Shown here: piece after piece, positions 9,388 to 45,857 of the stretch
Position numbering within the stretch: the first letter of the stretch is position 1
How the letters are laid out: each line of letters starts with the position of its first letter
Translations under genes and position numbers: made by a program
NCBI GenBank assembly: GCA_024682255.1
Contig: GCA_024682255.1_4716.1
Source of the DNA: a phage
Strand: one strand, 5' to 3'
Length of the DNA stretch: 64,000 nt
Notes under the pieces: model-generated
Database searches by the model: none
What the model was told of the DNA's origin: nothing
Seen by the model: the letters and a program-made list of their open reading frames with translations, nothing else

Positions 9388-10166
9388 GCGAACGTTTCTC
9401 CTGCAGCGTGTTGCGGATGGCGTAGCATGGTAGCATCCCATTGTACGAACCGGCTCCGGCTTACCCGCATCATGATGGATTCATCGTCAAGCCCTGGTTG
9501 CACAACCGGTAACCAACGTTCGTTAAGCACCTTCGCTTCAACGCGTTTCTTGCGTGGGTTGTAACGCACCCCGCTAACCCAAGCGAATCCAAGTGGATGC
9601 ACAACCCGTGGATAATACATGCGAAGCAATTGATGCATCCGATCCGTTGCCTCCAAGCTCGCATCCGCCATGTAAGGTTTCACCATGGTAAGCTTTTTGG
9701 TATAATACGTACCAACGGTATGGTTACGCCAACTTGGCAAGGCATGATCCCCTTCTCTCAGTTTGCTATCCGGGTTCATCGGCCAGACCTGCTGTTTACC
9801 GGCCAGCATCGCGTACTGCCGATCAACGCAACGAACCTGATCGGCGAACAATGGATCCAGGATATCATCCACCGCACCCTTATTGCGATAACCGTGATGT
9901 ACCACCAACCTGCTTGCGCTCATCCGTTGCGGATGCTGGCTCTTATGCGCATACAGTCCTCCGTCACCGCGAGCGTCGTAAAGATAACCGCATGCGCCAC
10001 GCCATATCACCTTGCCTACGGTTCTCTCGTCTTCAAGCAGCATCGTCGGTCCATCAAGCAAATTGGTGAACCATTGCACCTTCACGCATTCCGCTTGAAC
10101 GCACTCAGGTAATGCCTGATACTCTTTTTGGGTGTATAAGGTATCAAAAATGATTTCATCGTTCAT
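9384..10166 (-). CDS. hypothetical protein, first gene of a minus-strand operon
   Basis: 260-aa ORF with AGAGGA RBS; lies immediately downstream of the 0.9 kb non-coding region. Confidence 0.55.
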   Translation of the reverse strand: MNDEIIFDTLYTQKEYQALPECVQAECVKVQWFTNLLDGPTMLLEDERTVGKVIWRGACGYLYDARGDGGLYAHKSQHPQRMSASRLVVHHGYRNKGAVDDILDPLFADQVRCVDRQYAMLAGKQQVWPMNPDSKLREGDHALPSWRNHTVGTYYTKKLTMVKPYMADASLEATDRMHQLLRMYYPRVVHPLGFAWVSGVRYNPRKKRVEAKVLNERWLPVVQPGLDDESIMMRVSRSRFVQWDATMLRHPQHAAGETFA

Positions 10167-11093
10167 CTAAAAAGTTCCTCTGTTTCACGTTAATTAAACA
10201 ACGTATTGATTTCTGGTAACGATAACAATCCTAGTGATGTTATCAAAAAGGTAACGCTTACGCGTCGCGTTCATGATGCCATGCATCATGAAGGTAATAT
10301 AGCCGTGAAAGGATTTGTGTTACAGAAAGGGTTTTGTTGTTTTTAAGAAGAGATGGATTTAGAAGAGGTGTTGCAAGCAAGGAAGGTAAACGAGGATAGG
10401 TATTTTGATTTAAGTAAGTAAGATGTTATCTGTATTCGTTAAAAATGTATTGTCTAAGTTATCTTGTTTATCTTAGGTTATGTCTTATTGTTTAATCGTT
10501 TAATATTTTTATCTAAGTAGGTTTAACTCTATCTTGTTTGTATATTTAAATTAATTTAAAGTAGATCAATAAGCTTATCTTCAAAACAATGGATAACATG
10601 TGTTTACTACCTTAACGGTAACACATGTCATCTGTGCATTCACTCCGTTATCACTTCGTTACATGCTTATCAACGTTTTGTCTTCACAAAACGTTCAACT
10701 CAAAAAACCATTTGTGATACTCTTCTTCACGTTGTTCATCAGAGTATCTCGTCTATACTCATTGCATTCGTATACGACATAACCGTTATACGCTAACGCT
10801 ACGCTTATAGCTTGATAACTCTAAGGATAAAAACATAAACTCGCTTCGCTCGTTTAGTTTTTCTTTTTCTTAGAGTTATCCTGTTGCTCGTCTCTAAAGG
10901 ACTTCGCTCCTCCCCCGTCCCCCGAAGGGGCCGAGGTCGTGGAAATTTTACTTTCCAAATACATTTACAACATCTGTAAACTTTTACTCCAGGTACTTAA
11001 TCTTATCATTAGAAATTATAAAAGAGAAGAATAAACACAAACATAAACCTTCCTCCAACCCAACAGGGAAGGAGGAAGGGGGATTAATTAAAA
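10167..11093. other. long AT-rich non-coding region with reiterated TTATCT-type motifs and inverted repeats (regulatory hub, origin or ncRNA candidate)
   Basis: No ORF with RBS support in ~0.9 kb; repeated TTATCTTGTTT / TTATCTAAG motifs around 10.42-10.56 kb; 12-bp inverted repeat GATAACTCTAAG...CTTAGAGTTATC around 10.81-10.88 kb. Confidence 0.5.
11048..11079 (-). terminator. conserved hairpin element, AACCC-N4-GGGAA core (copy), downstream of 11094..11993
   Basis: CCTTCCTCCAACCCAACAGGGAAGGAGGAAGG; on minus strand followed by TTTATGTTTGTGTTTATT; identical 32-mer recurs at ~58629. Confidence 0.55.
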
Positions 11094-11993
11094 TTATACG
11101 GGAGCGTTAACGTTATAACCGAATACTGCTTTACCGTAGGTGTGAGTACCGTCAGCTAACGACAGCACCAGCACATTGCCGTACGTAGCGTTAACGCCCT
11201 TGTCGGTAGACTCGAGGGTATCACCGTTATAGACAAAGGTAGCTGTTTGCAGATTGGCTTTCAGTTCATTGATGATCTCATCACTTACACCGGTCTGCTC
11301 TTTGATCAGGGTGGTCAGGTTACCTGCCAGGCTTTCATCGATCTTGGTTTCGTTACTGGTAATCGCCTGTAAACCTACGCCGTAGATGCTGAAGTCTAAC
11401 GGATAGGTTAACAGACGCGCTGACGTTTTGGTACCATCGCCTTCATCAACGTAGGTTAAGTTACCCAGGTTGGTAACCTTGATGATGTTAGCCAGATCCA
11501 GCGTGGTGTTATAAACTTTAACTTGAACCGAGCCATACCACGCCAACGAATCTTCTTTGGCTTCCAGGGTGATCGTCTGGATACCATGCTGGTCGAAGGT
11601 AACCGGCGTAGCTAACGTTTCGGCTTTGATGTCTTTCGCTTTATCCAGGAACTTCTCACCGGAAGGCGTGATCATACCGTAGCGTTGAGCTACAAGGTCA
11701 ACCACGTCACCAATAGTGGTGTTCGCATTAACGTTAACACGTACAGCGATTTTCTGGAACCACTTAGCCAGATCCAGACGATGGTAGGTAACATCGCGTT
11801 CATTGAAGTAAGGGGTACCTTCACCTGGGCTAAGCGTTAAAGTTGCTTCTGGAGCAGAAGGATTCTTTTCTTTAAGAACGTATTTAAGGTCGGTGTATTT
11901 GAAGCTGGCACCAGTGTCGGCGTTGAGTTTGTTAATCTCATCAACGATAAGTTGCCAAGGTGTTTTTAAAGTAAGCGATACTTGAGCTGTCAT
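11094..11993 (-). CDS. putative virion structural protein, member of YYDR...LAWxGSV paralog family
   Basis: 299-aa ORF with AGAGG RBS; motifs TYHRLDL, AQRYGM, SLAWYGSVQV shared with 12135..12677, 23050..23955, 24872..25723, 25734..26681; monocistronic with hairpin terminator. Confidence 0.6.
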   Translation of the reverse strand: MTAQVSLTLKTPWQLIVDEINKLNADTGASFKYTDLKYVLKEKNPSAPEATLTLSPGEGTPYFNERDVTYHRLDLAKWFQKIAVRVNVNANTTIGDVVDLVAQRYGMITPSGEKFLDKAKDIKAETLATPVTFDQHGIQTITLEAKEDSLAWYGSVQVKVYNTTLDLANIIKVTNLGNLTYVDEGDGTKTSARLLTYPLDFSIYGVGLQAITSNETKIDESLAGNLTTLIKEQTGVSDEIINELKANLQTATFVYNGDTLESTDKGVNATYGNVLVLSLADGTHTYGKAVFGYNVNAPV

Positions 11994-12134
11994 TTTCTAC
12001 CTCTATGGTTGTTACATCACTCTCAAAAGATGTAAGTGTTTACAGAAATTAATATATTTTATATTAGTGTGAATAGTATGGAGAACGACTCCGAATCTCC
12101 TTTTCGACCATCAAAAATCAGAGGACACATAATC

Positions 12135-12677
12135 ATGGACTTAAACTTTAACAAAGCAGCGAAATCCCTTCTGCTTGATCTTATCAACACCAAAGCAACC
12201 CGCACACTGTCTGAAGAAGAACTGCAGTTCGGTACTCCGGCGACATCTTCCGAACATGGAAAGAACACCGTTATTCAGCTGGACGCTGCGCCTGAAGCAG
12301 CTAACCTGCAGGGTAGTCAGCAGTTCTACTACGATCGTCTGGCTCTGTCCGAAGTTTTCGCTGAAGTAACCGGCGATGTTACTTTCGAACTGCCGCACGG
12401 CACTGACAGCATTAAGGCTTCTGAACTGGTAAGCAAGCTGGTCACCAAATTCGGCCTGGCTTCCCTGACCGGTGAAATCAAAGAAGAAACCTTCCAGCTG
12501 TCTGCAGGTACTGTTGGTCGGGTAACCCTGACTGCGATCGAGGGTGGCCTGGTATATACCGGCACTCTGCAGGTTGCACTGACCTACGCAGCTGCACCGA
12601 AAGACCAACTGGCAACCGTTCTGGCGAATAACGTAGCTGATGGCTTCGTGAAACCGACCGTTAGCGCTGTTGGCTAA
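12135..12677 (+). CDS. putative structural protein, short member of YYDR paralog family
   Basis: Start re-assigned to ATG (MDLNFNK...) with AGAGGA RBS; contains FYYDRLAL, VTKFGL, LVYTGTLQV. Confidence 0.5.
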   Translation: MDLNFNKAAKSLLLDLINTKATRTLSEEELQFGTPATSSEHGKNTVIQLDAAPEAANLQGSQQFYYDRLALSEVFAEVTGDVTFELPHGTDSIKASELVSKLVTKFGLASLTGEIKEETFQLSAGTVGRVTLTAIEGGLVYTGTLQVALTYAAAPKDQLATVLANNVADGFVKPTVSAVG

Positions 12678-12971: not shown

Positions 12972-13607
12972 TTACTCAACACTGAACCCGTTCAAACGAA
13001 TAGCTTCATAACGCTTACGTTCACGACGTTTACGTGCCTGCCAACCGTAAATGAACTTCTCGTCTTTCTCACGACGTTCAGCTAATTCGATGTAGTAAGT
13101 GCTCTGCATATCCAGCATCGCGTCGATGAGATAATCTTTACCGGTTTCTCCGCGTTTAGCGATGTAAGCATCAATAGCTGCCAGTGATTTGGGACCCATT
13201 GCACCATCAGCGTCAATATCTTTCCAGTAAGTTTGACGGTTGTTCATGACGTTGAGATAACGCTGGAGGTTCTTAACCGCAACGGTTTTGCCTGCGTTGA
13301 TACCCAGGTCAAAGAGACGGTCAGCTAAAAACACAGAACGTTTCATGACTTCGTCAAGCTTCATCTTATCCCAGAAGTGGGTCTTGTAAATAAAGAACGC
13401 CATGTCGTAAGTAAGGTCACGCATGTTACCGTTCCAGCCGAATTTCGTTTTCAGCGTGGTTTTGTACTGATCGGCGAGTGCTTTCGTGATCCCCATCATG
13501 GTTTCATTTCCACTATCGTCAGGATCGTTAACATATCCTGCTTCGATACTGGTTTTGTCACGAATGATGAATTCGCAGGTAAAATCTTTTTCAGTAATCT
13601 TAGCCAT
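12972..13607 (-). CDS. GH108-family lysozyme-like muramidase with C-terminal peptidoglycan-binding domain (endolysin or virion lysin)
   Basis: N-terminal IEAGYVNDPDDSGNETMMGIT matches the GH108 catalytic signature (E-G-G-Y-x-N-D-P...G-I-T); C-terminal DADGAMGPKSLAAIDAY matches the PG-binding DG-x-x-GP-x-T/S motif; GAGGAG RBS. Confidence 0.7.
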   Translation of the reverse strand: MAKITEKDFTCEFIIRDKTSIEAGYVNDPDDSGNETMMGITKALADQYKTTLKTKFGWNGNMRDLTYDMAFFIYKTHFWDKMKLDEVMKRSVFLADRLFDLGINAGKTVAVKNLQRYLNVMNNRQTYWKDIDADGAMGPKSLAAIDAYIAKRGETGKDYLIDAMLDMQSTYYIELAERREKDEKFIYGWQARKRRERKRYEAIRLNGFSVE

Positions 13608-13650
13608 TAGAACTCCTCGTTGGAATAACGATTTAGAGGAACAGGAAGGG

Positions 13651-13725
13651 TCTAGAACGCGATAAACGATTTAAACCAGGTAAACCCCAGGTTAAACTTT
13701 TCGAAGCGTTACAACGCGTTCTAGA
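13651..13725. promoter_or_regulatory. 11-bp inverted repeat pair (TCTAGAACGCG...CGCGTTCTAGA) between tail fiber stop and lysin start
   Basis: Two copies of the palindromic core GTTCTAGAAC about 60 nt apart in the 126-bp intergenic region. Confidence 0.4.
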
Positions 13726-13733
13726 ACGTTGAA

Positions 13734-15782
13734 TTACATACCCTTGGTTCCTTTCACGTGATGTGCAATTTCTTCAACCATTGCACGCAGAGCACGAAGC
13801 TGTTGATCATGTTCGTACCAACCGCCTAACAGAACCCCACTATACACCATGGTGTCAAGACTTAACAGCCCTTTATCTGATACGTTGATCATTTCAGGGA
13901 ACTGTTCTTGAACACGCTGTGCAATAACACCGATCTTCTCGACATCAGGATCGTAGTTGTGACGGAAACGGGCAAGCCCGCTGCGCGCCATTTCACGTAA
14001 ACGTTCACTGAGAGATTCCGGATGGTCTTTCAGATAACGGATGTCGTGTTTACTACGCTCATCTGAACGGATGTATGCGTTAGGAACATCGATGTTGCTG
14101 TTGAAGTACAGCGCACTACCACCACCTGCAGAGTTCCCCCAATAGAAGCGTGTGATCTCACCGCCACCATTTTCCGTGATGATAACATGTTTACCTAAAC
14201 GTGTACCACCATTACCATCAACGAAGACCAGTTTGTTTCCGCTGTAAGAACCCCAGAACAAACGCGTATCGATGATGTGCGTTGCGGCGAGGCGGGCGTT
14301 ACGTGGTGTAGAATACACGGTGTTAACATCTTGCTGCGCATGCGCATCGGAAGCGATACCATAGTTCTGTACGTTACCCAACCCAACCTGCGCTTTCGTA
14401 ACAGCGTGAGGGTTGTCTCGACGGTTAGCGTGAGCGTTAACCAGATCACCCGCTAATTTCTGAATTGCCCAGTTGGTAGACTGTGGCGTCATGTAACGGT
14501 TAGTTGCAGAACCACCTTGCGCTTCAGCTTGGTTAGCGGTTGGGTAGTTCTCAACACTTCCTAACCCTACTTGTGCTTTAGACACTTGGTGCGGGTTATT
14601 CTTGTCGGCTTTATGCGCATTAAGCGGAACTAACGCAAAGGTCTCAATGGACGCTTTGGTTGTGTTCGGTGCCATTAATCGGTTAGCTGCAACACCGGCA
14701 CGCGCTTCTTCTTCAGAAGCCATCGGATAGTCTTGCACATTACCTAATCCCACCTGCGCCTTGGTCACTCTGTGTGGGTTGTTATAATCGGCTTTGTGCG
14801 CATTAAGTGGAATCAATGCGAATTGTTCAATCGCGGCAACGGTACGTAGCGGTGTCATGAAACGGTTGTTCGCTGTTCCGGCTTTCGCCTCATCATCCGA
14901 AGCGGTCGGGAAGTTATCAACGTTCCCAAGGTTAACCTGTGCTTTGGTGACGCTGTGTGGGTTATCCCGGCGGTTAGCGTGAGCATCGACTAGATCGCCC
15001 GCCAGTTTAGCAATTGCCCATCCAACCGTTTGTGCGGTCATGTATCGGTCAGGTGCGGTACCGGCTTCTGCCTCCGCCTTGTTTGCAGTAGGATAGTTCT
15101 GTACGTTACCTAGTCCGACTTGGGCTTTTGTTACTTCGTGCGGGTTATCGGTACGGTTAGCGTGTGCGTAATGCAGATCGGTCAGATCTTTATCCGCTGC
15201 TTGCATGTCTTTGCGTAGCTGATCGATTGCCGCCCAGAGACGGTTATCGGATGCAGCATCACCGATAAGTATTGCGGCTTTCAGTGAATAGATCGCTAAG
15301 CAAAGATGTTCGGTACCGTAAATAGCACTAACGTGGTGGATGTGTGGTTCAGGCGGATAAAGTTCCGGTTTGTTCTTGATGTCGTCCCAGTTGATCGGAC
15401 GATCGTCAAGTTTGAGTTCTTCGATAGCCTGATACAACGCGTCAATAAGACTTACGTAAACACCACCGATGATACGATAGTCGTTAACTAATGTCCCCTC
15501 GATATCATCGTTGATGATGGCGATGGCTGCACAGATTTCTTTACCTGCGTAAAGCGTCGCATCCTGATACAAGAAAATGGGTTTATAATCCACGCCTCGT
15601 ACCAGTGTCTTACCGGTAAGCTTTTCAGTGATGACCAGACTTTCGGTGAAGAACGGTCCGCCATCAAGGGCGTAACATTTATTCTCGGTTCGTGGAACGG
15701 TATGCTCTTCACCAACGATGTGGTTGCTGGCGAGTGTACCGGTCCAGTCCTCGGGGTACTTCAGGGTAATTGGTGTCGACAT
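13734..15782 (-). CDS. tail fiber protein with five ~60-aa repeats and C-terminal intramolecular chaperone (peptidase S74-like, self-cleaving) domain
   Basis: Five repeats of H-A-N-R-x-D-N-P-H-x-V-T-K-A-Q-V-G-L-G-N-V-x-N-Y; C-terminal YIRSDERSKHDIRYL...GVIAQRVQEQFPEMI matches the S-D-x-R-x-K-x-x-I chaperone-domain signature. Confidence 0.8.
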   Translation of the reverse strand: MSTPITLKYPEDWTGTLASNHIVGEEHTVPRTENKCYALDGGPFFTESLVITEKLTGKTLVRGVDYKPIFLYQDATLYAGKEICAAIAIINDDIEGTLVNDYRIIGGVYVSLIDALYQAIEELKLDDRPINWDDIKNKPELYPPEPHIHHVSAIYGTEHLCLAIYSLKAAILIGDAASDNRLWAAIDQLRKDMQAADKDLTDLHYAHANRTDNPHEVTKAQVGLGNVQNYPTANKAEAEAGTAPDRYMTAQTVGWAIAKLAGDLVDAHANRRDNPHSVTKAQVNLGNVDNFPTASDDEAKAGTANNRFMTPLRTVAAIEQFALIPLNAHKADYNNPHRVTKAQVGLGNVQDYPMASEEEARAGVAANRLMAPNTTKASIETFALVPLNAHKADKNNPHQVSKAQVGLGSVENYPTANQAEAQGGSATNRYMTPQSTNWAIQKLAGDLVNAHANRRDNPHAVTKAQVGLGNVQNYGIASDAHAQQDVNTVYSTPRNARLAATHIIDTRLFWGSYSGNKLVFVDGNGGTRLGKHVIITENGGGEITRFYWGNSAGGGSALYFNSNIDVPNAYIRSDERSKHDIRYLKDHPESLSERLREMARSGLARFRHNYDPDVEKIGVIAQRVQEQFPEMINVSDKGLLSLDTMVYSGVLLGGWYEHDQQLRALRAMVEEIAHHVKGTKGM

Positions 15783-15795
15783 AACCTGGAGGTCC

Positions 15796-18390
15796 TTATA
15801 ACGTGACTGTACCTAATTTGGTTGTCTTATTGAGATTAATGACAGAGATCTGGGTATCGCTGGTCGTAATCGTTCCGATATTAACGCGCTGTCCTTTATC
15901 ATCTTCTTGCTTGTAGATGGTTAACTCCAGTTCTAACTGGTCGCCATTAGGAACAACGGAAACGTACCATGTTTTATTACCTGGTGAGCTATTATAGTCT
16001 TTTAGGTTATAATGGCCTTTAGGTAAGGTCATGACCTTACCGGCAAACAAGCAAGTGATGTCTTCGTTGATGTAGATATCGTAACCGGAAGCAGCAACGA
16101 CCGTAGAAACCATGTAGACATGTTTGACGGTACCTGCGAGGTATTCGGCTACGCTTGGCCCATATGCTCTGAATACCTGTCCGCCATTGGATAAACGGTA
16201 CGCTTCCCCAAGGTCAACGTACCCCAGACCCCATACCGGATGGACGTTGTAACGACGTCCGCTGCTGGCCAAATACTCATAAAGCTCATCTACCGATAAC
16301 CCAACCCACGCACCACTGGCGTTCTTAGCACCACGGAATTGAAAATCGTTTGCGTTTCCTGGAGTAGCAACGCGCACGGACATCGCCCCGGCGATTAACC
16401 AGCCATCAGCGCATTTACGATACCCTAATGGTCCCCACGCCCCCAGAGTGTTATCAATGTTATTGATTTGGTCCCGAGGCGTGTAAGTTACCGTTGTGAC
16501 GACCCCCGTTACGGTAATGTTCCCTTCCCGAGCGCTAGTCGTTACTTCAGACGTCATGATAGCCGCCTTCCTGGAGACAGGATCGTACACCGATATGAAC
16601 ATCAAGCAGGGGGCCCCTGTGGACGCTGGAGGAACCACGATAGAGCCGCGTATAACGGAGTATCTCTCAAGCTTCGGCGACGTGTAGGTATCCCAACAAA
16701 GTTTGGCCGCTCTGTCGAGTTCTGCCTGCGTGATGCTTATCGATGCCCCCTTTAAGGCTAACGTATCAGGGTCGACCTCAACCCTGCTGCTTAATCTCCC
16801 TTCCTGTAACCAGCTACCAGTCACTATCGTCTGGTCGTCGCTCATGTGAATTGTCGCGAAACGTTCGCTCACTGAACCGCCTACGTGGACGCGACTGGTT
16901 GGCGGGAATCCCGTCACATCGACCACGCTGTTCTTATAGCGATAACTCAAATCCCAATCAGTGGTTATTAACCGCTTTTCGAAATTGCTCTGACCCCCTG
17001 GGATGCGGGATAAGACATAGACCTTGTTCTTCGCCGTGAAGCCAACGAAGCCGTGTGGACCACAGGACCCAACAACGCGGTCCATGATGTTAATCCAGTT
17101 CCCCACCTCGTACGCGGATATTGGGGTGAGTTTCGCAAGTTCGTCGAAGACATTACCAGCGTAGTCACCAATGCGATACGATCGAACCATCGGCGAGGCC
17201 AGGTTATCATTCACACAGCTGGTAACCAGACCGTCCTCGCGAATGACCATGTTCCCGGTAAGGTTGCCCCCACCCCATGCCCAGAATCCGTCTTTATAAT
17301 CACGGTCACGAGTTGACATCGTACAAGGGCCACGAAAGGACACCGAACCATCGGAGTTCACTTGTAATGACGGCGTTCCAGCATTGGGACTTAATGTCCA
17401 TTGCTTCGTATCCAGGTTCAAATCGACGTACCAGATCGTTGTCCCCTGGTCGGCGATATTCACGGTACTGTTAGTGTACCATGCCGTCGTGCAGTAGATT
17501 CGCGCAATGTTACCTCTTACAACAGCGTAATTTCGAACACCCGCACGAATAGGGATAAACGTCGTTAATTGACTAGGGTACGCTGTATGGTTTAACACTT
17601 CCCAGAAAAGAATGTGGTCGAGGTTGGTTTTCGTCGTTCCCTCAAAAATCTTTCCACTAAACCCGGTTTCTTTGGTGAACTGTACAGCCGCACCATTTTT
17701 AATGTCCGATAACATACAGGTATGTACATCGAGCCCGTGTTTCCCTTCATATTCCCACCAGACTAACAGGTACACTTTGTTTTTGTAGACGAACGTACTA
17801 CAGCGCGCCATGCTGTTGGTAATACCCTCTACCGACCCGGTACACATAGCGGCGACATGCATCTCTACGTTGAATGTGCCGTTAGTCAGAACGATGTAGG
17901 GCTGTGTGTTCTCGTCGTTTGCGTCCATCGCGATACCCATCATCACGCCGTGGTTATGACACCAGACCGATTGTGGGATTTTAGGTAGTGCTGTAGGGTT
18001 GTACTGGCGACTGGTACCTATGGCGGTATCGAGCAACCCTTCACCATTGTTTTTACAGATAGCGTAATACACCCCGTTTTTCATGCTGTTGGATGCAGAG
18101 CGAAGGATGGAAACACTCCCGTCTGCTTCCTGACAGATTCCGTAGGTACGACGTTCGGTCATGGCTATCGCGCCATCAGCTGACCCTTCGATGGCGAGAG
18201 GGAAGTAACTTTGATCGCCAATTTGTTCGATATCGGTTACGTCAATATCAATGTACTTTTCCATCTCGGTGTTGAACTCTGCAGTGCTGTACGCGCCGAG
18301 ATCGCCAGCCTTTAACCCTGTTGGATTGCTTCTGCTAGCGATGCGCTCGGTAACACTGGTCACCAGTTCGCTAAATTTTTTCATTGCCAT
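15796..18390 (-). CDS. large tail-associated structural protein (putative fiber, spike or baseplate component)
   Basis: 864-aa ORF between two tail fiber genes; G/S/T/N-rich composition; no catalytic motif recognised. Confidence 0.5.
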   Translation of the reverse strand: MAMKKFSELVTSVTERIASRSNPTGLKAGDLGAYSTAEFNTEMEKYIDIDVTDIEQIGDQSYFPLAIEGSADGAIAMTERRTYGICQEADGSVSILRSASNSMKNGVYYAICKNNGEGLLDTAIGTSRQYNPTALPKIPQSVWCHNHGVMMGIAMDANDENTQPYIVLTNGTFNVEMHVAAMCTGSVEGITNSMARCSTFVYKNKVYLLVWWEYEGKHGLDVHTCMLSDIKNGAAVQFTKETGFSGKIFEGTTKTNLDHILFWEVLNHTAYPSQLTTFIPIRAGVRNYAVVRGNIARIYCTTAWYTNSTVNIADQGTTIWYVDLNLDTKQWTLSPNAGTPSLQVNSDGSVSFRGPCTMSTRDRDYKDGFWAWGGGNLTGNMVIREDGLVTSCVNDNLASPMVRSYRIGDYAGNVFDELAKLTPISAYEVGNWINIMDRVVGSCGPHGFVGFTAKNKVYVLSRIPGGQSNFEKRLITTDWDLSYRYKNSVVDVTGFPPTSRVHVGGSVSERFATIHMSDDQTIVTGSWLQEGRLSSRVEVDPDTLALKGASISITQAELDRAAKLCWDTYTSPKLERYSVIRGSIVVPPASTGAPCLMFISVYDPVSRKAAIMTSEVTTSAREGNITVTGVVTTVTYTPRDQINNIDNTLGAWGPLGYRKCADGWLIAGAMSVRVATPGNANDFQFRGAKNASGAWVGLSVDELYEYLASSGRRYNVHPVWGLGYVDLGEAYRLSNGGQVFRAYGPSVAEYLAGTVKHVYMVSTVVAASGYDIYINEDITCLFAGKVMTLPKGHYNLKDYNSSPGNKTWYVSVVPNGDQLELELTIYKQEDDKGQRVNIGTITTSDTQISVINLNKTTKLGTVTL

Positions 18391-18402
18391 TATTCACCTC
18401 AG

Positions 18403-18888
18403 TTAAATCGGCGAATCAGGTAATTGACCATCGACAATCTCGATAGTGGCCACTTTACGTGTCGCAGCAAGATGTGCTGTGCCCTGAACTTTGTTCCAGG
18501 TACCGATACGCATCACGTTTTTATAGCTGCTGTTACTGTCGCTCAATGTGTAAACAAAACCGTTATCCGTGACAGCAAGATAGATCCAACCGGTTGATGC
18601 GCTAACACCAGAAACATCCAACGTGGTCGCGGGAACCGTTCCTGTTATCGTGTTGTATTCCGCTTCACCTTGGCCGATGCTGATCCTCCCGTTGTTGTAG
18701 CTGGCTGCTGGAATTATTTTATTTCGGCTGAAGAAAAGGAACGGAAGATAACGTTGTGTAACAAGAGGCGTAAGTTTAGGAGCCACTTCTGTCTTAGCGT
18801 ACACGTTTGTCTGTGTCGTTGTTACTGAATGAGGATTCTTCTTGGCCAGGTAGGCTCCCCATTCAGAAAGCAATGTCGATAACTTCAT
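18403..18888 (-). CDS. short tail-fiber-like protein (paralog of 18893..19408)
   Basis: 161 aa; N-terminus MKLSTLLSEWGAYLAKKNPHSVTTTQ carries a degenerate fiber repeat motif (NPHxVT). Confidence 0.5.
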   Translation of the reverse strand: MKLSTLLSEWGAYLAKKNPHSVTTTQTNVYAKTEVAPKLTPLVTQRYLPFLFFSRNKIIPAASYNNGRISIGQGEAEYNTITGTVPATTLDVSGVSASTGWIYLAVTDNGFVYTLSDSNSSYKNVMRIGTWNKVQGTAHLAATRKVATIEIVDGQLPDSPI

Positions 18889-18892
18889 ACGG

Positions 18893-19408
18893 CTACCCCA
18901 TGTAACGTTTTTGGCCGAGGATGAAGACCTTGTTAAGGACCACCGAGGTAATGCCTGACGCGTTGCAACTCACCTGCCCAACACGAATCGCTGTTGATGA
19001 ATCAGCCCCAGCACTACTGTTCCAACTCCAGCCGACCGACCCACCTTTCTGATGAATGAAAAGATAACCGGTTCTGTTCGCCCAGTCGGAAGTAAGATTT
19101 TTGATGTCTAGCGTTCCTTTCGCCAGAATATAGTCGGTACCGGAGATCATGACGGGGATTTCAGGATACGAGATTACCGTACCGCTAGCGGTAACGTTGC
19201 TGATGCGATCACTACGGATATCAGTGCAATCACCGAAATACGCTACAGGGAGTATCCCCTTAGGTAGCTTTTTGTCGATTTTTGTATCGACCGTGCTTTT
19301 ATCGGGTGCGTCGATTTGCGCTGCAGTGACTTGGTTAGGGTTATCCTTCCTTGTGTACCATGTCGTCATGCGAGCACCCAATTCACTCATTTTTGTGCCC
19401 ATTTTCAC
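18893..19408 (-). CDS. short tail-fiber-like protein (paralog of 18403..18888)
   Basis: 171 aa; N-terminus MKMGTKMSELGARMTTWYTRKDNPNQVTAAQ carries a degenerate fiber repeat motif. Confidence 0.5.
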   Translation of the reverse strand: MKMGTKMSELGARMTTWYTRKDNPNQVTAAQIDAPDKSTVDTKIDKKLPKGILPVAYFGDCTDIRSDRISNVTASGTVISYPEIPVMISGTDYILAKGTLDIKNLTSDWANRTGYLFIHQKGGSVGWSWNSSAGADSSTAIRVGQVSCNASGITSVVLNKVFILGQKRYMG

Positions 19409-19459
19409 ATCCTATCGAAAAATAAAAAGAAGGAAAGGTGGGTAGAACCCACCCATCCG

Positions 19460-21613
19460 TTATAACGTTTCGAAGTCGGTTGCTTTGATAACCGCGTTGA
19501 AGTTAGCAAGGAATTCCTTAAGCAGTGCTTGGAAGACATCACGAAACGCTGTGTTCGTCTGCAAGCTGGTTAAATAATCGTTCTTAAGGTAATCGCTCAG
19601 CTTACCGATCTTCTGCATCTTCTCGCCGTCTTGGTTCTCTCCAGGTTCTTGGCTGTTGATGTTAACCCATTTGATCCCTTCGAGATCGCCATCGGCAAGG
19701 AAGTTAGCAGGTGTCTCATCGTCGTTCAGGATTTTAATTGTGTCGCTGGATTCAATGCCACCGTAAGCTTCCAGAAGCTGGTTGATGGTCAACTTATTGA
19801 CGTTGATTGAACCATTGACACCATCAATACCGATGCCTGCACCTGTGATGGATGTCGCCGAAAGATCGATCGGTCCGGTTAACTTACCACCGTTGATCGG
19901 TAACGCACCAACTTGCTCAGCGGTGTGTGTATGGTCGGCTAACGCCGCAAACGCCACGATAGACTTATACGTCGAATACGGCGTCATATACGCTGAATGG
20001 TTGGTGTTGTCAACCGCTTCGGTATCGGTAGCGACATTAAAGTTCTGCACGTTGCTGAGACCGACCTGCACCTTCGTTACTTCATGCGGGTTGCTCTTAT
20101 TGACAACGTGTGCTGCAAAACCGTCACCAGCTAAAGCAGTGATTGCCGCTTTTGTCGCAGCCGGTGTCATATAGCGGTTGGTTGCTTCACCCGTTTGCGC
20201 CTCTTCGTCGGAAGCAACAGGATAGTTCTCAACGCTCCCCAAACCGACCTGAGATTTTGTTACTTGGTGTGGGTTTTCGGTATTCGCGATGTGACTACTG
20301 AACCCTTGACCAGCCAGTTGCTCGATTGCGTAACGAACAAGTATTGGTGTCATGTACTTGTTGTTAACTTGACCATCGATAGCTTCTTGGGTGGTAGCAA
20401 CCCCGAAGTTTTGCACGCTCCCCAACCCAACCTGCGCTTTCGTAACGGCGTGAGGGTTATTGGTGTTACCGATGTGATCGGTAACCGTTGGCGTGATTAA
20501 TGCTGCGATAGCGGCTGCCGTGGTCGCAGGGGTCATGTATTTATCGTTAGCAACACCCGCACCAGCTTCTACGTTAGATGCTACACTGTAGTTCGATACA
20601 TTTCCCAACCCAACTTGAGCTTTGGTTACCCCATGAGGGTTATTGGTGTTACCGGTATGGGTTGTCAACGTAGCGTCGACATGATCGATACGCGTGCTTA
20701 AGCCATCGGTGATCGCTCTGATTGCGGCTCGTACACCCGCTGGAGTCGTGTACAGATTTGTGGCCGTACCGGTAATGGTTGCATTACTATCGGCTGTACC
20801 GTAGTTCTCAACGTTTCCGAGTCCCACCTGGGCTTTAGTTACCTTGTGTGGGTTGTTGCGGTTACTGATGTGTGCAGCGGCACTATCACCACTAAGGTTA
20901 GCGATCATCTTACGTGTCATCGCCAACGTCATGTACAGATTTTCACCGACAGTTTCCAGATCGCTCTCGGTCGCTGTTGTGAAGTTCTGCACATTCCCCA
21001 ACCCAACCTGCGCTTTCGTAACGCCATGGGGATTATCGCGACGATTCTCGTGCTGCAGCAATGCGGTCATTGCTTTATTGAACCCTTCTTCAAGCGGTTC
21101 TTTCAATGATTCGATTGCCGCCACCACATCGTCCCACGTCATTGTGTCGGTTTCGACATTATGTTGGTGGTTGATTGGCGGGAATACGGAAGGAACGTCG
21201 GCAACCTTTTCCCAGAACGTAACGCGAGGATCGTAAAGGTTGTTGGCTAAAACGTTAAGAATTTGTTGTTGATCAAGTGTAAACTCACCCCCCAGTGAAT
21301 AGTAGTTCAGTTGCAACTGTCCACTGAATGCGGTGTCCAACAGCATGATGGAACCGTATAATTCCAGGCCGGTCAGCGCAGCCATGGCACGGAAGGGGTG
21401 AGTGCATAAAAAGTCAACGCCTTCTTCCAGATACGCGTTTGTTTCAGGGTTGTAGATCTTTAACCCATTACGAAAATATGGCGCGTATTTAGGAACGAGA
21501 AAGTTAAATCCGGTCCCCGTGGAAGGACGGACAGTGACGAGTTCTTCTGGAACCCATGCGCCATCCAAATTCCCCTGCGGGTTATACGGAAGGCGTTTAA
21601 TTTCATCTGTCAT
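19460..21613 (-). CDS. tail fiber protein with six ~60-aa repeats and HTHT...GG...TG distal domain
   Basis: Six repeats of N-P-H-x-V-T-K-A/S-Q-V-G-L-G-N/S-V-x-N-F/Y; after the last repeat HTHTAEQVGALPINGGKLTG, a signature common in distal tail fiber domains; N-terminus related to 13734..15782. Confidence 0.8.
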   Translation of the reverse strand: MTDEIKRLPYNPQGNLDGAWVPEELVTVRPSTGTGFNFLVPKYAPYFRNGLKIYNPETNAYLEEGVDFLCTHPFRAMAALTGLELYGSIMLLDTAFSGQLQLNYYSLGGEFTLDQQQILNVLANNLYDPRVTFWEKVADVPSVFPPINHQHNVETDTMTWDDVVAAIESLKEPLEEGFNKAMTALLQHENRRDNPHGVTKAQVGLGNVQNFTTATESDLETVGENLYMTLAMTRKMIANLSGDSAAAHISNRNNPHKVTKAQVGLGNVENYGTADSNATITGTATNLYTTPAGVRAAIRAITDGLSTRIDHVDATLTTHTGNTNNPHGVTKAQVGLGNVSNYSVASNVEAGAGVANDKYMTPATTAAAIAALITPTVTDHIGNTNNPHAVTKAQVGLGSVQNFGVATTQEAIDGQVNNKYMTPILVRYAIEQLAGQGFSSHIANTENPHQVTKSQVGLGSVENYPVASDEEAQTGEATNRYMTPAATKAAITALAGDGFAAHVVNKSNPHEVTKVQVGLSNVQNFNVATDTEAVDNTNHSAYMTPYSTYKSIVAFAALADHTHTAEQVGALPINGGKLTGPIDLSATSITGAGIGIDGVNGSINVNKLTINQLLEAYGGIESSDTIKILNDDETPANFLADGDLEGIKWVNINSQEPGENQDGEKMQKIGKLSDYLKNDYLTSLQTNTAFRDVFQALLKEFLANFNAVIKATDFETL

Positions 21614-21644
21614 GATGCGCCCTTTACAAGTTGTTAGTAAGTAT

Positions 21645-21663
21645 GGGATACCCTGGGGTATCC
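21645..21663. promoter_or_regulatory. near-perfect palindrome GGATACCC-t-GGGGTATCC in divergent intergenic region
   Basis: 8-bp inverted repeat between divergent starts at 21613 (-) and 21718 (+). Confidence 0.4.
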
Positions 21664-21717
21664 TGTGTTAACAGCGGTAAAATATTACTGTAACTATAAA
21701 ATAAGGGGGCCTCTCCC

Positions 21718-22998
21718 ATGTATACATTGGTAAAAACTTACGGGTTACCCGTAGGTTCTGGCACGGCCTGGACAGCGCTTGAGGCGGGTGAAAGTGTCCT
21801 GAGTACGTTGTTCTCAACGTATCAAAAACTCAAGATCCAGGTCCATGAAAGCTACGCTGACCAGCAACAAGTTATTGATCTGTACACATTTCAATCCGAG
21901 CTTCAAAACAGCAGTGATACGCTCAATGCGTGGTTGAAAGCGAAATCGGATGCACATACCAACCTTCGAGGACAGCCTGGTGAGCTGTCGATTAAAACCC
22001 ACAAGCTTTATTGTCATGACGCTATTACGGTAGGCTTTCTCCCTAAAGTCGGTAATAGCGGTTATCATCCGAGCAATGCGATCCCTGAGTCGGAACGCAC
22101 TGATATCCTGTTGACGAAAGCGAATACGAATTACGAAAATATCGGCAAACACTGCTTGTTCACCGTAGGCGGTTATGTTCATCCTCACGTCTACGGTAAA
22201 GACGTTGGTGTCTATATCCTGGGTGGGTTCGAGACAGCACAGCGTAGCCAAGAAAACGATATCGGCATGATTGATTTTAGCCGTATCGGGAGTTTGGAAA
22301 TTCATGCTATCACAGAAGAGATGATTGCTGATTCCACGAAGCTCTTGCCGTATAAGGACGAGATGTACTTGCGGTTACCGCGCAAGGTCGCCGAAGATGA
22401 AACCGTTGCGCTGGTGTTCGGGGGATATTTACATCTTCTTGACGATTGTTACACGATCGTTAGCGACACGACAGCAAAAATAAACTGCATTAACATGTTT
22501 CTCTATGAAAGATACTTCCGTTCCCGCAAATACCTTGATCTAACATCTCTTGGTATTCTGTTGAACGAAGAAGACCCACAGTCCGACATTGTTGCCAATC
22601 GTTTATTGTCGGATAAAGCATTAAAAGCGTGGGTGACGCATCCTTGCAGTTTCTGGGTGTATATCAAAGCAACATCGATTCGGGTTACGCAAGAACCTTT
22701 ACCACGAAGTGGTGTACCAGGACAGTATTTCTTAGGTAAGAAACCGGAAGGATTGATTCGGGCCGATCTTGGTGAGTTACCGGCTTACGTGCAGACCTAT
22801 GAAAAACCGTTATGGGTACTTCACTCGCGCTGGGGACTTCGTAAGAACATGTTGTTTGAAAATACGTTGTACAAACATACCCGCGTTAAGCGGCTTAACG
22901 ATACGCCTTATCTTCACCAGGTCTGGTTGGAAACGCATGCGACGTTGCAGACAGTACACAAGCTCGAATTGATCGATTCCAGTCAGAAAAACAAATAA
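21718..22998 (+). CDS. hypothetical protein
   Basis: 426-aa ORF with AAGGGGG RBS; convergent with downstream minus genes; followed by conserved hairpin. Confidence 0.55.
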   Translation: MYTLVKTYGLPVGSGTAWTALEAGESVLSTLFSTYQKLKIQVHESYADQQQVIDLYTFQSELQNSSDTLNAWLKAKSDAHTNLRGQPGELSIKTHKLYCHDAITVGFLPKVGNSGYHPSNAIPESERTDILLTKANTNYENIGKHCLFTVGGYVHPHVYGKDVGVYILGGFETAQRSQENDIGMIDFSRIGSLEIHAITEEMIADSTKLLPYKDEMYLRLPRKVAEDETVALVFGGYLHLLDDCYTIVSDTTAKINCINMFLYERYFRSRKYLDLTSLGILLNEEDPQSDIVANRLLSDKALKAWVTHPCSFWVYIKATSIRVTQEPLPRSGVPGQYFLGKKPEGLIRADLGELPAYVQTYEKPLWVLHSRWGLRKNMLFENTLYKHTRVKRLNDTPYLHQVWLETHATLQTVHKLELIDSSQKNK

Positions 22999-23049: not shown

Positions 23050-23955
23050 TTATGCTACATATAGCGTTAGATAACCATCGATGAGCGTATTCATCACACT
23101 GAGTTGGAGTACGACAGCTTTACTAACATCTGTGCGTACACCGAACGGTAGTGTTTTGAATTGCTCTGGATCGGCTATTACTCTCGCATTCTGCAAGTTG
23201 AGTGGTCCAGGCATTGCTGACAGTACCCAGCGATCGTTGACCGTAAGACCGTCGATCTCTTCAGAGAGACCCAATTGCAGCATGTTCATTTCTGCAATTA
23301 GTGCCTCCGATTGCGTATCACCTGAGGTTAACGTATACCCATCGGTAAGTGATGCCAGAACACCAGCAGATACGAACCAGTTGTACGAAACAATAGCGCC
23401 AGGGAGTTTATCACTATCTCGATCGATGAGATAATTCAACCCAGCCAACATATTGTTGCGAATGAGGTTGTTGAGGTCATTATGTCCTGAGGTTAACTCA
23501 ATGAGTAATTGACCAACCCATACTTGGTTACCGGGTTTAGGTGTTATCACAACCTGTATCGGTGACTTGGACTTATCCAGATCCGCGTCGACAATCTCGG
23601 TTTTGTTGAGAAGGATACCGTACGTCGATGCTAAGACAGGTAGGATCTCAGAGACCTTGGTTAGCGCATCTAAGGTTTCGATCTCGATGGGCCAGTGGTG
23701 CTGTCCGCCAGACCAAGTACCTAGTTTACCAAGATCGATACGGTTATAATAGATGTCGACAGAGTTCACCAGCCCTGAACCCGGTTGGGGATGCACGGTT
23801 AACTTGCTGTTACGCTTGTACCCGGTGCTTTCAGAAGCCTCACCGATAACCAGTTTATCCAGCGTTACGCCTCGAGCATCGAAATCGCTATGCTTTCGAA
23901 TCAGCCGAAAGAGGATTTCTTTCGATTCTAACCCCAGGATTTCACTGTACTCCAT
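23050..23955 (-). CDS. putative structural protein, YYDR paralog family member
   Basis: 301 aa; IYYNRIDLG, ASTYGIL, NQVWVGQLLIEL. Confidence 0.55.
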   Translation of the reverse strand: MEYSEILGLESKEILFRLIRKHSDFDARGVTLDKLVIGEASESTGYKRNSKLTVHPQPGSGLVNSVDIYYNRIDLGKLGTWSGGQHHWPIEIETLDALTKVSEILPVLASTYGILLNKTEIVDADLDKSKSPIQVVITPKPGNQVWVGQLLIELTSGHNDLNNLIRNNMLAGLNYLIDRDSDKLPGAIVSYNWFVSAGVLASLTDGYTLTSGDTQSEALIAEMNMLQLGLSEEIDGLTVNDRWVLSAMPGPLNLQNARVIADPEQFKTLPFGVRTDVSKAVVLQLSVMNTLIDGYLTLYVA

Positions 23956-24871: not shown

Positions 24872-25723
24872 TCAGTTATATTGCATCAACAGGATACCGC
24901 CGTAGTTCGTGCAGTAATCTTGGCTAAGCGTAACGATAACAGCGTTAGCGAACGCTGGGTTAACAGGATAACCCTGTGCGATAAGTTCTGTTGTTTTACC
25001 GGTCGCGAGCACGGTGGCTCCGTAAAGGTTGTTTTCATCTTCACGGCCGTTATACACCCACGGGGTTGGCGCAACGTTGTTGAATAAGCTAACCAATGCG
25101 CTTAAGTTACCACCAACTTTTAACCCAGCAAGATCGGAACGGATCGCTGTACAGTCTATAGCGTAACTGTAGACCAGTGCTTGGATACGATTTGCGGTGT
25201 AGTACGGGAAATTGAGACCGGTCATCACCGTGGTCTTCATCATCCCCGCAATATCGTGGGCGCTATCGAGGAGATAGAACGTAACACTTCCTGTCCAAGC
25301 CAATCCGGTTGTTTTCAATTCTACGGTGTGAGGGAACGGATATTCATCACCTCGTACAATCGGAGAATCGACGCAGCTATCCTGATCGATAACGATACCG
25401 TACGTTGATTGGATCAGAGGGATAAGATCGTGCGTCGTTTTAACCCCGGCATCGATAGCAAGCTTCGGTTCCATTCCCAAGAAGAAGTCTTGAATAGGGA
25501 TACGATCGTACCACACGTAGCTGCTTTCACGGTATTGTGCTGGTGTTACTGTTGCCGAAGGCGATACTTTCGCGCGCGTGTTCCGTTTATACGCGTGGTT
25601 TCCGTTTTCAGCAACATCCGTGATATCAATTGCATCGAAGTTAAAGTCGAAGTCAGGATTGGCTGCCTGAATAAGTTCAGCGACCAGTACTTTAGGACTT
25701 TTGTTTAACAATTTCTGACTCAT
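24872..25723 (-). CDS. putative structural protein, YYDR paralog family member
   Basis: 283 aa; VWYDRIPI, QSTYGIV, GLAWTGSVTFYL, C-terminal YCTNYGG. Confidence 0.55.
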   Translation of the reverse strand: MSQKLLNKSPKVLVAELIQAANPDFDFNFDAIDITDVAENGNHAYKRNTRAKVSPSATVTPAQYRESSYVWYDRIPIQDFFLGMEPKLAIDAGVKTTHDLIPLIQSTYGIVIDQDSCVDSPIVRGDEYPFPHTVELKTTGLAWTGSVTFYLLDSAHDIAGMMKTTVMTGLNFPYYTANRIQALVYSYAIDCTAIRSDLAGLKVGGNLSALVSLFNNVAPTPWVYNGREDENNLYGATVLATGKTTELIAQGYPVNPAFANAVIVTLSQDYCTNYGGILLMQYN

Positions 25724-25733: not shown

Positions 25734-26681
25734 TTAGCCTTGTTCTTCTGGAGAACGACCCTGGAGGCTTGCGGTATGTCCGTCGACATTGTAATAGAAA
25801 ATCAATGGACCGCCAACGGCAGTACAGTAGTTTTCATCCAGACTGATCTCGATACCGTATTGGTAACCTGCTCTTGCTGGAATACGTCCGCCTAACTCAC
25901 CGTTGAAAGCCACTTTAGCATTATACAGGTTATACGGTGCGGCGTTGTCGTCTAATACCCAACGATCGGTAGTCATTTCAGCCAGAAGATCGGCGACCAC
26001 CACATCGCTAATAACGGTACCTGTTACCAGCGAAGCCAGCAGTTCACCGTAATCAGAAGTATCACGACTGTAACTGTAGATCTCGCCGCTAGCGCGTACG
26101 CCTTGACCGAAGAACTTAAGACCATCCAGCTCTTTGATCGCGATAATATCATCAAGATTCGGTACACGCGACTTCATCAAGATACGAACGCTCCCCGTCC
26201 AAGCCAGGCAGCTAGATGAAACACGAAGCAATTGTCCGTTAACGGTATCCCAGCTAAGTTCGTCGTTGACGATTTCTTCCGCGGTAAGGCCAAGACCGAA
26301 ACGTTCTTTGATGATAGGCCAGATATCACGCATCTTGGTAGCGTCTGGCGCATCGATAAGAATAGGCGCTACGTTACGCAGATACGCACCGATGTTAATA
26401 CGATCGTAATACAGCGTCGTCGAACCTTCATAATCGTCTAACTCGGTAAGCTTAGCGGTTGCCGTTGCCGTAATCTGGGTGTCGCGCTCATAGGCGCTTT
26501 GGTTGGTGGTTGGTGTTCCTAAAACCAATAATTCAGGGGTTAGAACATGCTCTCCGTTCTGAGGTGGGTTATCGTGGTTGATAAGACCATACACGAGATC
26601 GGATGAGGGTAAAGAGACGTCGACCGGGTAAAGTTCGGTGTCGTCAATAATTGTTACCGTATCACTCACGGTGACCTCCAC
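25734..26681 (-). CDS. putative structural protein, YYDR paralog family member
   Basis: 315 aa; LYYDRINIG, KERFGLGL, CLAWTGSVRILM, C-terminal YCTAVGG. Confidence 0.55.
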   Translation of the reverse strand: MEVTVSDTVTIIDDTELYPVDVSLPSSDLVYGLINHDNPPQNGEHVLTPELLVLGTPTTNQSAYERDTQITATATAKLTELDDYEGSTTLYYDRINIGAYLRNVAPILIDAPDATKMRDIWPIIKERFGLGLTAEEIVNDELSWDTVNGQLLRVSSSCLAWTGSVRILMKSRVPNLDDIIAIKELDGLKFFGQGVRASGEIYSYSRDTSDYGELLASLVTGTVISDVVVADLLAEMTTDRWVLDDNAAPYNLYNAKVAFNGELGGRIPARAGYQYGIEISLDENYCTAVGGPLIFYYNVDGHTASLQGRSPEEQG

Positions 26682-44793: not shown

Positions 44794-44869
44794 CGTATTT
44801 TACCTTTCTATGTTAGGTGGATTGCGGATAGAAGAATCAATGCATAAACTAATTTAAGTTTGTTAAGGT

Positions 44870-45772: not shown

Positions 45773-45857
45773 GCTCGGCTCCTTGATTACGATAAGGATG
45801 ATTGTGGTTTTGTGATGCTGGTAGGGCTCCTTTGTTTAGGGCCCTACCAATATTGGG

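Follow-up and report, generated by a model that had tools for sequence, protein, structure and literature searches.

The fiber locus of a Goslar-like jumbo phage and its candidate receptor-binding trio

Genes of the fiber locus

The window analyzed here is a stretch of 64,000 nucleotides of phage DNA (NCBI GenBank assembly GCA_024682255.1, contig GCA_024682255.1_4716.1). Between positions 13734 and 21613 it carries five genes, all on the minus strand, which an earlier interpretation made from the letters alone (the sequence-only reading) had described as a cassette of two long tail fibers with an 864-residue protein and two short proteins between them. All five open reading frames (ORFs) were found where they had been placed, and the assignment to a tail-fiber and host-recognition cassette stands, with gp131-type fibers located beside a gp130-like platform protein. 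Proteins are named here by the letter w and their length in amino acids (w682, w864, w161, w171, w717, and w426).

The gene order matches gp24–gp30 of Escherichia phage vB_EcoM_Goslar, a 237-kb nucleus-forming chimallivirus (Chimalliviridae), and the five ORFs are orthologs of its gp25–gp29. Overall, the window and Goslar share about 94-96% of their DNA sequence. Region 13000-22000 aligns with Goslar at 93.6% nucleotide identity across 77% of its length, aligned blocks of the whole window are 89-97% identical, and a 236-kb contig from a Salmonella Enteritidis assembly (L006; NCBI GCA_014829495.1) shows ~94% nucleotide identity to the window. On account of these identities, we assign the phage as a third member of the Goslar group. 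The locus probably encodes the peripheral-baseplate host-recognition apparatus of this Goslar-like chimallivirus.

The two long fibers occupy the ends of the cassette. Fiber A (w717; 19460..21613, minus strand; gp29 ortholog) is composed of a gp131-like N-domain (21062-21613), six NPH repeats (19937-21061), and a tip with an HTHT...GG region (19463-19936). Fiber B (w682; 13734..15782, minus strand; gp25 ortholog) contains a gp131-like N-domain (15174-15782), five NPH repeats (14259-15173), a Gly-rich tip (14067-14258), and a predicted S74 intramolecular chaperone (13737-14066). The N-domains of the two fibers are distant relatives, with 24% identity over aa 44-174 (E 7e-11), and the repeat unit has 61 residues and a period of 183 nt, so that the related N-termini and the five or six repeats of ~60 residues in the sequence-only reading are both borne out. 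The repeats follow the consensus H-x5-NPHxVTKAQVGLGNVxN[YF]-x3-A-x3-EA-x8-YMTP-x7-AI, have a mean pairwise identity of 48% at the amino acid level, and score 88-107 bits as single units against a hidden Markov model (HMM) of the repeat. Their DNA is 60-81% identical, with longest exact matches of 18-29 nt, and for this reason they offer little homology for recombination; the suggestion that they serve as a substrate for domain swapping finds no support here.

Both fibers match the peripheral fiber proteins of phage phiKZ. Residues 4-334 of w717 align with residues 5-330 of gp131 at 31% identity (blastp, E 3.5e-44), and the N-domain alone (aa 9-155) aligns with PHIKZ131 at 30% identity (tblastn, E 1e-20). 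w682 matches gp135, gp131, gp134, and gp133 with E values from 1e-21 to 1e-31, and the blastp matches of the two fibers to these four proteins range overall from 1e-15 to 3.5e-44. Next to w717, and transcribed divergently from the fiber genes, lies w426 (21718..22998, plus strand), a homolog of phiKZ gp130, the platform beneath which the fibers dock (blastp, 24% identity over 340 aa, E 5e-27); it is 99% identical to Goslar gp30, which is found in virions. In addition, a DUF7208 protein near the locus is a homolog of the phiKZ spoke protein gp139 (E 7e-51). From this homology, we identify w717 and w682 as peripheral-baseplate fibers of the phiKZ gp131 type, which enlarges the known gp131-like family by two.

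The distal ends of the two fibers differ, as had been proposed. In w682, residues 573-631 match Peptidase_S74 (PF13884) with 26 bits (cut-off 22), covering profile positions 1-56 of 58. The pair S573/K578 is presumably the S74 catalytic dyad, as in endoNF and T5 pb1. In an alignment with the intramolecular chaperone of phage S16 gp37 (PDB 6F45), the segment S573-D-E-R-S-K578 lies opposite S-D-R-R-I-K. Since this Ser/Lys pair is conserved, the S74 chaperone at the C-terminus most likely assists the folding of w682 and would then cleave itself off before Ser573. The tip of w717 (the HTHTAEQVGALPINGGKLTG... region) gave neither a Pfam family nor a match in PDB sequence searches. A seven-bladed C-terminal propeller as in gp131 was not encountered in w717 or w682, whose tips are of the HTHT...GG and S74-chaperone kinds; because gp133–gp135 also differ from gp131 in their C-termini, the propeller defines gp131 itself and not the family. 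PDB sequence searches with w717, w682, w864, and the w717 tip returned nothing meaningful, a match to ribosomal L18e (E 0.004) being a spurious, low-complexity resemblance to the repeat, and an NCBIfam scan gave no genuine match.

A large protein and its two truncated relatives

Three proteins are encoded between the fibers: w171 (18893..19402, minus strand; 169 aa; gp28 ortholog), w161 (18403..18888, minus strand; gp27 ortholog), and w864 (15796..18390, minus strand; gp26 ortholog). As a small correction, orthologs of w171 begin at the ATG at 19402 and not at the upstream GTG at 19408. Each of the three starts with a helix and one NPH-type motif and ends in a β-domain, and none has a gp131-like anchor domain. 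In w171, the N-terminal helix is followed by an NP-motif and the C-terminal β-domain. In w864, the N-module, with a helix and an NPT motif (18211-18390), is separated from a conserved C-domain (15799-16110) by a variable body (16111-18210); this insert of ~700 aa, which contains a predicted sugar-binding-type β-propeller, is found in w864 only.

Several profile comparisons connect the three proteins. The w171 family aligns with w161 with a probability of 96% and an E value of 1.7e-9 (hhalign), which bears out the proposal that the two short ORFs are paralogs. The C-domain of w171 (aa 81-166) is homologous to aa 776-862 of w864 (hhalign 94%, E 1e-7), a relation to which PHROG profiles already pointed. 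The link between w161 and the w864 N-terminus is not significant with four-sequence profiles (hhalign, E 0.07) and rests on deeper profiles and on a distant chimallivirus-like contig (L009). There, the w864-family profile is matched by a 162-aa short protein, with 33 bits for the N-module and 50 bits for the C-domain (E 5e-27), and, reciprocally, both ends of an 887-aa protein match the short-family profile (E 1e-17). We conclude from these alignments that w864, w161, and w171 form a single paralogous family, related at both ends, and therefore that w171 and w161 correspond to w864 without its ~700-aa middle. The 864-residue protein, previously seen as a bystander between the fibers, is thus placed as the large member of the short-protein family.

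The N-module of the trio is homologous to the NPH motif of the fiber shafts. Against the repeat HMM, the N-termini of the short ORFs match over 12-14 residues with 9.5 and 7.5-7.8 bits; they are the top two non-fiber matches among 447 six-frame ORF segments, the next best scoring 3.3 bits, and one of 4000 shuffles reaches 7.8 bits. Conversely, the short-family profile matches all repeats of both fibers (w717, 46 bits, E 1e-15; w682, 39 bits, E 2.5e-13). The degenerate repeat copy claimed for the short proteins is therefore above chance, but it comprises only ~20-26 residues (the end of a helix and NP[HN]xVTxxQxG) and not a whole repeat. Among phiKZ proteins, the N-module of the w864 family also has counterparts in the last NPH motif of gp131 (aa 304-344, 27.7 bits), in the equivalent motifs of gp133–gp135, and in gp132, a 110-aa virion protein with a single repeat. 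In gp131 this last motif sits upstream of the crystallized C-terminal propeller domain, whose boundary we take to lie near residue 375 (PDB 4GBF).

At the other end, the shared β-domain, a helix with a β-sandwich, resembles the "shoulder" of phage receptor-binding proteins (RBPs; p2 ORF18, TssK, SPP1 gp22). The likeness is one of fold, at 7-15% identity, and sequence homology between the RBP shoulder and the C-domain of the trio was not detected. The body of w864 has the β-propeller fold of carbohydrate-active enzymes and lectins (GH130, GH43, sialidase, AAL) and no Pfam, NCBIfam, or PDB sequence match. Two further relations were rejected: profile comparison revealed no resemblance of the w864 body to the phiKZ gp131 propeller or the C-domains of gp133–gp135, and gp136–gp138, the small proteins that follow the phiKZ fibers, are unrelated to w171 and w161.

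A profile search recovered 317 representatives of the w864 family (50% clustering), annotated as hypothetical everywhere. Most are 880-990 residues long and carry an NPH-type motif as well as a short helical leader, and they are often paired with truncated paralogs. A large protein accompanied by a mini-paralog is also seen in L009 and in Asteriusvirus G17; the latter has a 195-aa protein between two family members of ~900 aa, and this protein aligns with the C-terminal ~170 residues of its neighbors (E 8e-35). In other phages, a single chain joins a w864-like body to NPH repeat(s) and a gp131-like N-domain (P0094, 1148 aa; P0110, 1714 aa). Such fusions argue that the w864 body is the distal part of a gp131-type fiber. 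P0113 (2488 aa) carries two w864-like bodies in one chain, and in the giant fusions P0113 and P0110 a gp131-like N-domain is joined to one or two complete bodies and further C-terminal domains. The giant fusions are single-chain versions of what is divided among several genes here.

Exchanged alleles, virion composition, and flanking sequences

Comparison of the window with Goslar and L003 reveals a mosaic block at 16100..19050. Outside it, sliding nucleotide identity has a baseline of 0.94-1.00. At ~16100 it drops from ~0.96 to an unalignable core (16100-18050), followed by a shoulder at 18150-19050 with a plateau of 0.77-0.81 (77-81% identity), and the baseline is regained within w171. The block thus spans ~3 kb and takes in the body of w864, the whole of w161, and the last part of w171. 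Apart from one 2.6-kb insertion elsewhere, the window has no other divergent coding block of several kb. At the protein level, identities to Goslar and L003 are 99% and 96% for w682 (gp25), 97% and 95% for w717 (gp29), 89% and 90% for w171, 84% and 84% for w161, and 52% and 47% for w864; flanking genes show 92-99% and 92-97%. The long fibers are therefore nearly constant among close relatives (95-99%), and what has been replaced is the body of w864, along with w161 and some of w171.

Synonymous divergence (dS) from the relatives is saturated over codons 1-760 of w864 and reaches 1.17 in w161 and 0.36 in w171, whereas flanking genes range from 0.07 to 0.19 and codons 761-870 of w864 have 0.089. 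The ratio of nonsynonymous to synonymous divergence (dN/dS) is low throughout the block (0.08-0.2; 0.077 for w161 and 0.15 for w171). Because dS is saturated while dN/dS is low, the block is best read as a replacement by a diverged allele, not as local fast evolution, and one that hit the three paralogs jointly. The first ~100 and last ~105 residues of w864 are conserved. In its N-module (codons 1-60), the proportion of nonsynonymous differences is 0.07 and that of synonymous differences 0.73, indicating strong purifying selection, and such constancy of the protein despite saturated dS is as expected for a docking surface that would face a conserved partner. Two sister lineages, L002 and L005, with flanks 80-95% identical, have w864 orthologs that are only 38% identical, and L005 and the window share 52%; these values indicate that w864 alleles have been exchanged between lineages. 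Taken with its two mini-paralogs, w864 is the best candidate for a host-range determinant, rather than the two long repeat fibers.

Over longer distances the fibers vary as well. The five-gene set persists in L002, L005, and L009 in an altered order (fiber A, fiber B, short proteins, large protein) and with different fiber tips. Homology of fiber B ceases at aa ~495-504, the end of the repeat array, beyond which the window has the S74-chaperone tip, L002 an unrelated 129-aa tail, and L005 a 59-aa tail and a separate chaperone-like gene. Fiber A of L005 carries added Big_1/Invasin_D3 domains, and the number of NPH repeats ranges from 5 to 6 across lineages. The prediction of mosaic breakpoints at repeat boundaries thus holds for distant lineages, where tips are exchanged just past the last repeat, but not for close relatives, where the breakpoints at ~16100 and ~19050 lie outside the NPH repeats. 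The separate small gene after fiber B is found at 8356-8949 in L005 (197 aa, weak Phage_tail_APC match) and at 14878-15198 in L009 (106 aa), two lineages in which fiber B has no S74 chaperone of its own, with 38% identity between the two products. It looks as though in-chain and separately encoded fiber chaperones alternate in evolution.

Virion data are available for the Goslar orthologs in Table S4 of the Goslar preprint, which reports mass spectrometry of CsCl-purified virions. All five proteins were detected, with 44 peptides and a label-free quantification (LFQ) area/mass of 9.26 for gp25, 34 and 8.04 for gp29, 21 and 1.37 for gp26, 5 and 1.47 for gp27, and 10 and 1.52 for gp28 (bioRxiv 10.64898/2026.04.21.720040). 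In Goslar, all five are thus virion components, including the short proteins, whose absence from virions had been named as a refutation of the sequence-only reading. By LFQ, gp26, gp27, and gp28 are equimolar and ~6-fold less abundant than gp25 and gp29; they lie near the level of 6-12-copy proteins (the 12-copy portal has 1.74), and gp25 and gp29 resemble proteins of ~36-60 copies. The near-equal abundance of gp25 and gp29 is compatible with a hetero-hexameric assembly of N-domains. The preprint labels gp25 and gp29 as tail fibers and does not discuss gp26–gp28 (bioRxiv 10.64898/2026.04.21.720040).

A GC-rich hairpin followed by a T-run (19436..19454, minus strand; 8 pairs, 5 of them GC) lies in the 51-nt gap between w717 and w171 and has the best terminator-like score at the locus. 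The next four genes past this gap are spaced only 4-13 nt apart. Terminator-like sites at the locus are not in excess (10 versus 10.7 expected from shuffles), which keeps the role of the hairpin putative, and sigma-70 promoter-like sites are fewer than in shuffles (8 versus 13.6); these scans are uninformative because the phage uses its own RNA polymerases. The hairpin could attenuate transcription. However, w682, which is encoded 3′ of the low-abundance trio, equals w717 in abundance, so a further level of control must be involved. The last gene of the same-strand cluster encodes an endolysin (12972..13607, minus strand; GH108 and PG_binding_3, Pfam E 2e-19 and 2e-18), and the Goslar record annotates a terminator 3′ of its ortholog. 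Rfam and tRNA scans of the entire window found no RNA genes.

Other differences from Goslar are smaller or lie farther away. The endolysin gene has a dS of 0.51 (neighbors ~0.1), with 84-87% nucleotide identity at 13350-13650, and represents a second, smaller mosaic patch. Within ORF 9384-10166, ~345 nt (9733-10078) are unalignable to Goslar, and the following ~930 nt (10167-11093; low GC, 0.41) contain no long ORF and no Rfam family or tRNA; Goslar likewise has a gap between gp21 and gp22. A segment of ~2.6 kb at 44846-47424 (low GC, 0.435; positive GC skew) corresponds to only ~250 nt between gp047 and gp048 in Goslar. Of its ORFs, all on the minus strand (44870-45772, 45858-46631, and 46774-47406), none has a Pfam match, and the first and second are paralogs. 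An array of DUF7941 paralogs flanks the fiber locus (11094-11993, 12036-12677 on the plus strand, 23050-23955, 24872-25723, and 25734-26681), of which 12036-12677 is counted by position alone, as the ortholog of Goslar gp23. Assemblies of Salmonella enterica (serovars Enteritidis and Panama) contain near-complete Goslar-like genomes of 236-247 kb (L006, P0007, P0177), and some clusters of such genomes hold hundreds of member sequences. This suggests infection of Salmonella by Goslar-like phages, which would persist in cultures or contaminate them.

Proposed arrangement and comparison with known systems

In phiKZ, twelve peripheral fibers dock under gp130 through hetero-hexamers of gp131-like N-domains together with a six-helix bundle, and the spokes consist of gp139 (PMC13250141). 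By analogy, the N-domains of w717 and w682 would anchor beneath the platform w426, with shafts built from six and five NPH repeats, respectively. The trio would assemble through its conserved ends and dock on the fiber apparatus through its NPH module, and the propeller body of w864 would contact a sugar receptor on the cell surface. Specificity would then shift by swapping the w864 body with the co-adapted w161 and part of w171, while the anchored fibers stay constant. This arrangement, with anchored fibers, an anchor-less trio, and the w864 body as the receptor-binding part, is the one we consider probable. Sugar binding by w864 would fit the lipopolysaccharide (LPS) outer core, the receptor that genome-wide screens assign to Goslar ("GluII"; hits in galU, hldE, and waaF). 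The co-assembly of paralogous gp131-like N-domains into one hetero-hexameric fiber base in phiKZ also argues, by analogy, against two independent alternative fibers in the window phage.

As a doubtful extension, w864, w161, and w171 may form a 1:1:1 pseudo-symmetric heterotrimer, in which the mini-paralogs would contribute two of the three parts of a three-fold NPH connector at the N-terminus and of a three-fold shoulder-like knob at the C-terminus, so that one monomeric propeller is mounted on a trimeric fiber. Equimolarity, co-exchange, and the precedent of phiKZ gp133, gp134, and gp135, present as one each, are suggestive of such an assembly. If this were correct, the heterotrimer would be a paralog-based answer to the mismatch between a three-fold fiber and a one-copy receptor-binding domain, apparently reused in the unrelated jumbo phages L009 and Asteriusvirus G17, and it would explain both the exchange of the trio as one cassette and its equimolarity in virions.

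Several points weigh against giving host contact to w864 and its partners. Since the structural matches of the w864 body are at the level of fold only (4-9% identity), they do not demonstrate sugar binding. Alleles of the window type and of the Goslar type are both found in Salmonella Enteritidis assembly contigs and thus show no host correlation for w864. The fiber tips, which vary between distant lineages, are likely to contribute to specificity too. The scatter of the LFQ values is too wide to fix the stoichiometry of gp26–gp28. Furthermore, the tail fibers and the peripheral baseplate could not be resolved in the Goslar map, and the position of gp26–gp28 is putative; the same preprint proposes other elements for host recognition, DUF7941 fibers with carbohydrate-binding domains, the "fiber cloud" proteins (bioRxiv 10.64898/2026.04.21.720040). 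One of these, the gp22 ortholog (11094-11993), has the highest dN/dS of the region against Goslar (0.58 at a dS of 0.12), which suggests that another host-recognition element is under diversifying or relaxed selection.

The trio might instead be present in the virion off the gp131-type fibers, with each protein as its own homotrimer (for example, 6 × 3 copies) in short fibers or spikes on the peripheral baseplate. The RBP-shoulder fold, to which the shared β-domain is similar, is a typical trimerizing and baseplate-docking module (phage p2 ORF18, TssK), the higher LFQ estimates of 20-22 copies are compatible with 18 copies of each protein, and most members of the w864 family lack a gp131-like anchor. 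However, the N-module of the trio is the same motif that builds the fiber shaft, other phages have the w864 body in one chain with a gp131-like N-domain and repeat, the order of fiber, short, large, and fiber genes is kept even in the distant L009, and the trio was replaced together as one block. We consider the separate homotrimers possible, though not probable.

A second question concerns what the w864 propeller does. Instead of, or besides, acting as an adhesin, it could be an enzyme, a glycosidase or a sialidase-like or phosphorylase-like depolymerase that degrades O-antigen or capsule. Its top structural neighbors include GH130, GH43, GH32, GH62, sialidases, and the endosialidase of phage phi92, and the crystallized propeller of phiKZ gp131 has been described as a fold often tied to enzymatic activity (PMC13250141). 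We hold an enzymatic role to be rather doubtful.

It is unlikely, in our judgment, that the long fibers with alternative tips are the main determinants of host range, with NPH repeats as substrates for tip swaps and the middle proteins as accessories. The different tips of w717 and w682 within one phage, the abrupt end of fiber-B homology after the last repeat with unrelated tails in distant lineages, the domains gained by fiber A of L005, the change in repeat number between 5 and 6, and exact matches of 26-29 nt between repeat units would be explained in this way. Among Goslar, L003, and L006, however, both fibers are 95-99% identical including their tips, and w864 is 47-52% identical in two of the three. 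Differences between w717 and its Goslar ortholog fall at aa 222-610, mainly in the repeats, and neither the low DNA identity of the repeats nor the position of the recent breakpoints agrees with a recombination at these sites. Finally, that w171 and w161, small proteins adjoining the fiber genes and matching no annotated family (including any chaperone family in Pfam or PHROG), are assembly chaperones or decaying fragments and not functional virion parts is highly improbable and largely refuted, as gp27 and gp28 occur in CsCl-purified Goslar virions at the molar level of gp26, both genes are under purifying selection (dN/dS 0.08 for w161 and 0.15 for w171) and kept in all six Goslar-like loci compared as well as in L009 and G17, their fold is RBP-like and not chaperone-like, and the chaperone-like genes of L005 and L009 encode a different protein.

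Two electron cryomicroscopy studies from 2026, of phiKZ and Goslar, name the host contact of chimalliviruses as an open question. The arrangement with w864 as the receptor-binding part nominates gp26 and its two mini-paralogs as a testable determinant for members that infect E. coli and Salmonella, and the analysis defines a widespread family of jumbo-phage proteins. Nucleus-forming jumbo phages resist many bacterial defenses, and the engineering of their host range could be guided by the boundaries at which exchange occurs in nature, w864 codon ~760 and w171 codon ~120.

Among known systems, phiKZ is the closest beyond the Goslar group. Homology covers the platform, the N-domains of the fibers, and the first NPH repeats, with E values from 5e-27 to 3.5e-44, and the neighborhood is the same, including gp139 and its DUF7208 counterpart. 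Both phages have several paralogous fiber proteins and a distal β-propeller in one component, and gp132, a short NPH-only virion protein, offers a parallel to the short proteins of the window. In contrast to the phiKZ fibers, which have 1-3 NPH motifs and carry the propeller in-chain on gp131, the shafts here have 5-6 repeats and no propeller tip, and the predicted propeller belongs to a separate, anchor-less protein with two mini-paralogs. The S74 chaperone of w682 is not seen among the phiKZ locus proteins compared. In Goslar the same five genes occur in the same order; the gp26 allele of the window differs (52%), and gp27 and part of gp28 have diverged with it.

With fibers matured by S74 chaperones (K1F endosialidase, T5 pb1, S16 gp37), w682 shares the S74 domain and the Ser-x4-Lys pair, and its cleavage is predicted accordingly from sequence. 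In S16, the matured gp37 tip then bears the separate adhesin gp38, a precedent for a fiber with a separate receptor-binding protein. The fiber-B orthologs of L002 and L005 lack the chaperone yet retain the w864 trio, and docking of the trio therefore cannot depend on a tip exposed by the chaperone. The RBP shoulder is N-terminal in p2-type proteins and C-terminal in w864, a likeness of fold. Branched and adaptor RBP systems (G7C gp63.1/gp66, CBA120 TSP1–4, the hyperbranched fibers of phiKp24) provide a further parallel, as there anchor-less RBPs ride on an anchored fiber through short conserved N-terminal modules and distal cassettes are exchanged. What sets the window apart from these is that an NPH-type motif would serve as the connector, with truncated paralogs of the candidate RBP itself as partners. 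Fiber modularity as such is ordinary; a receptor-binding trio of one large protein and two mini-paralogs is, as far as the searched literature goes, undescribed.

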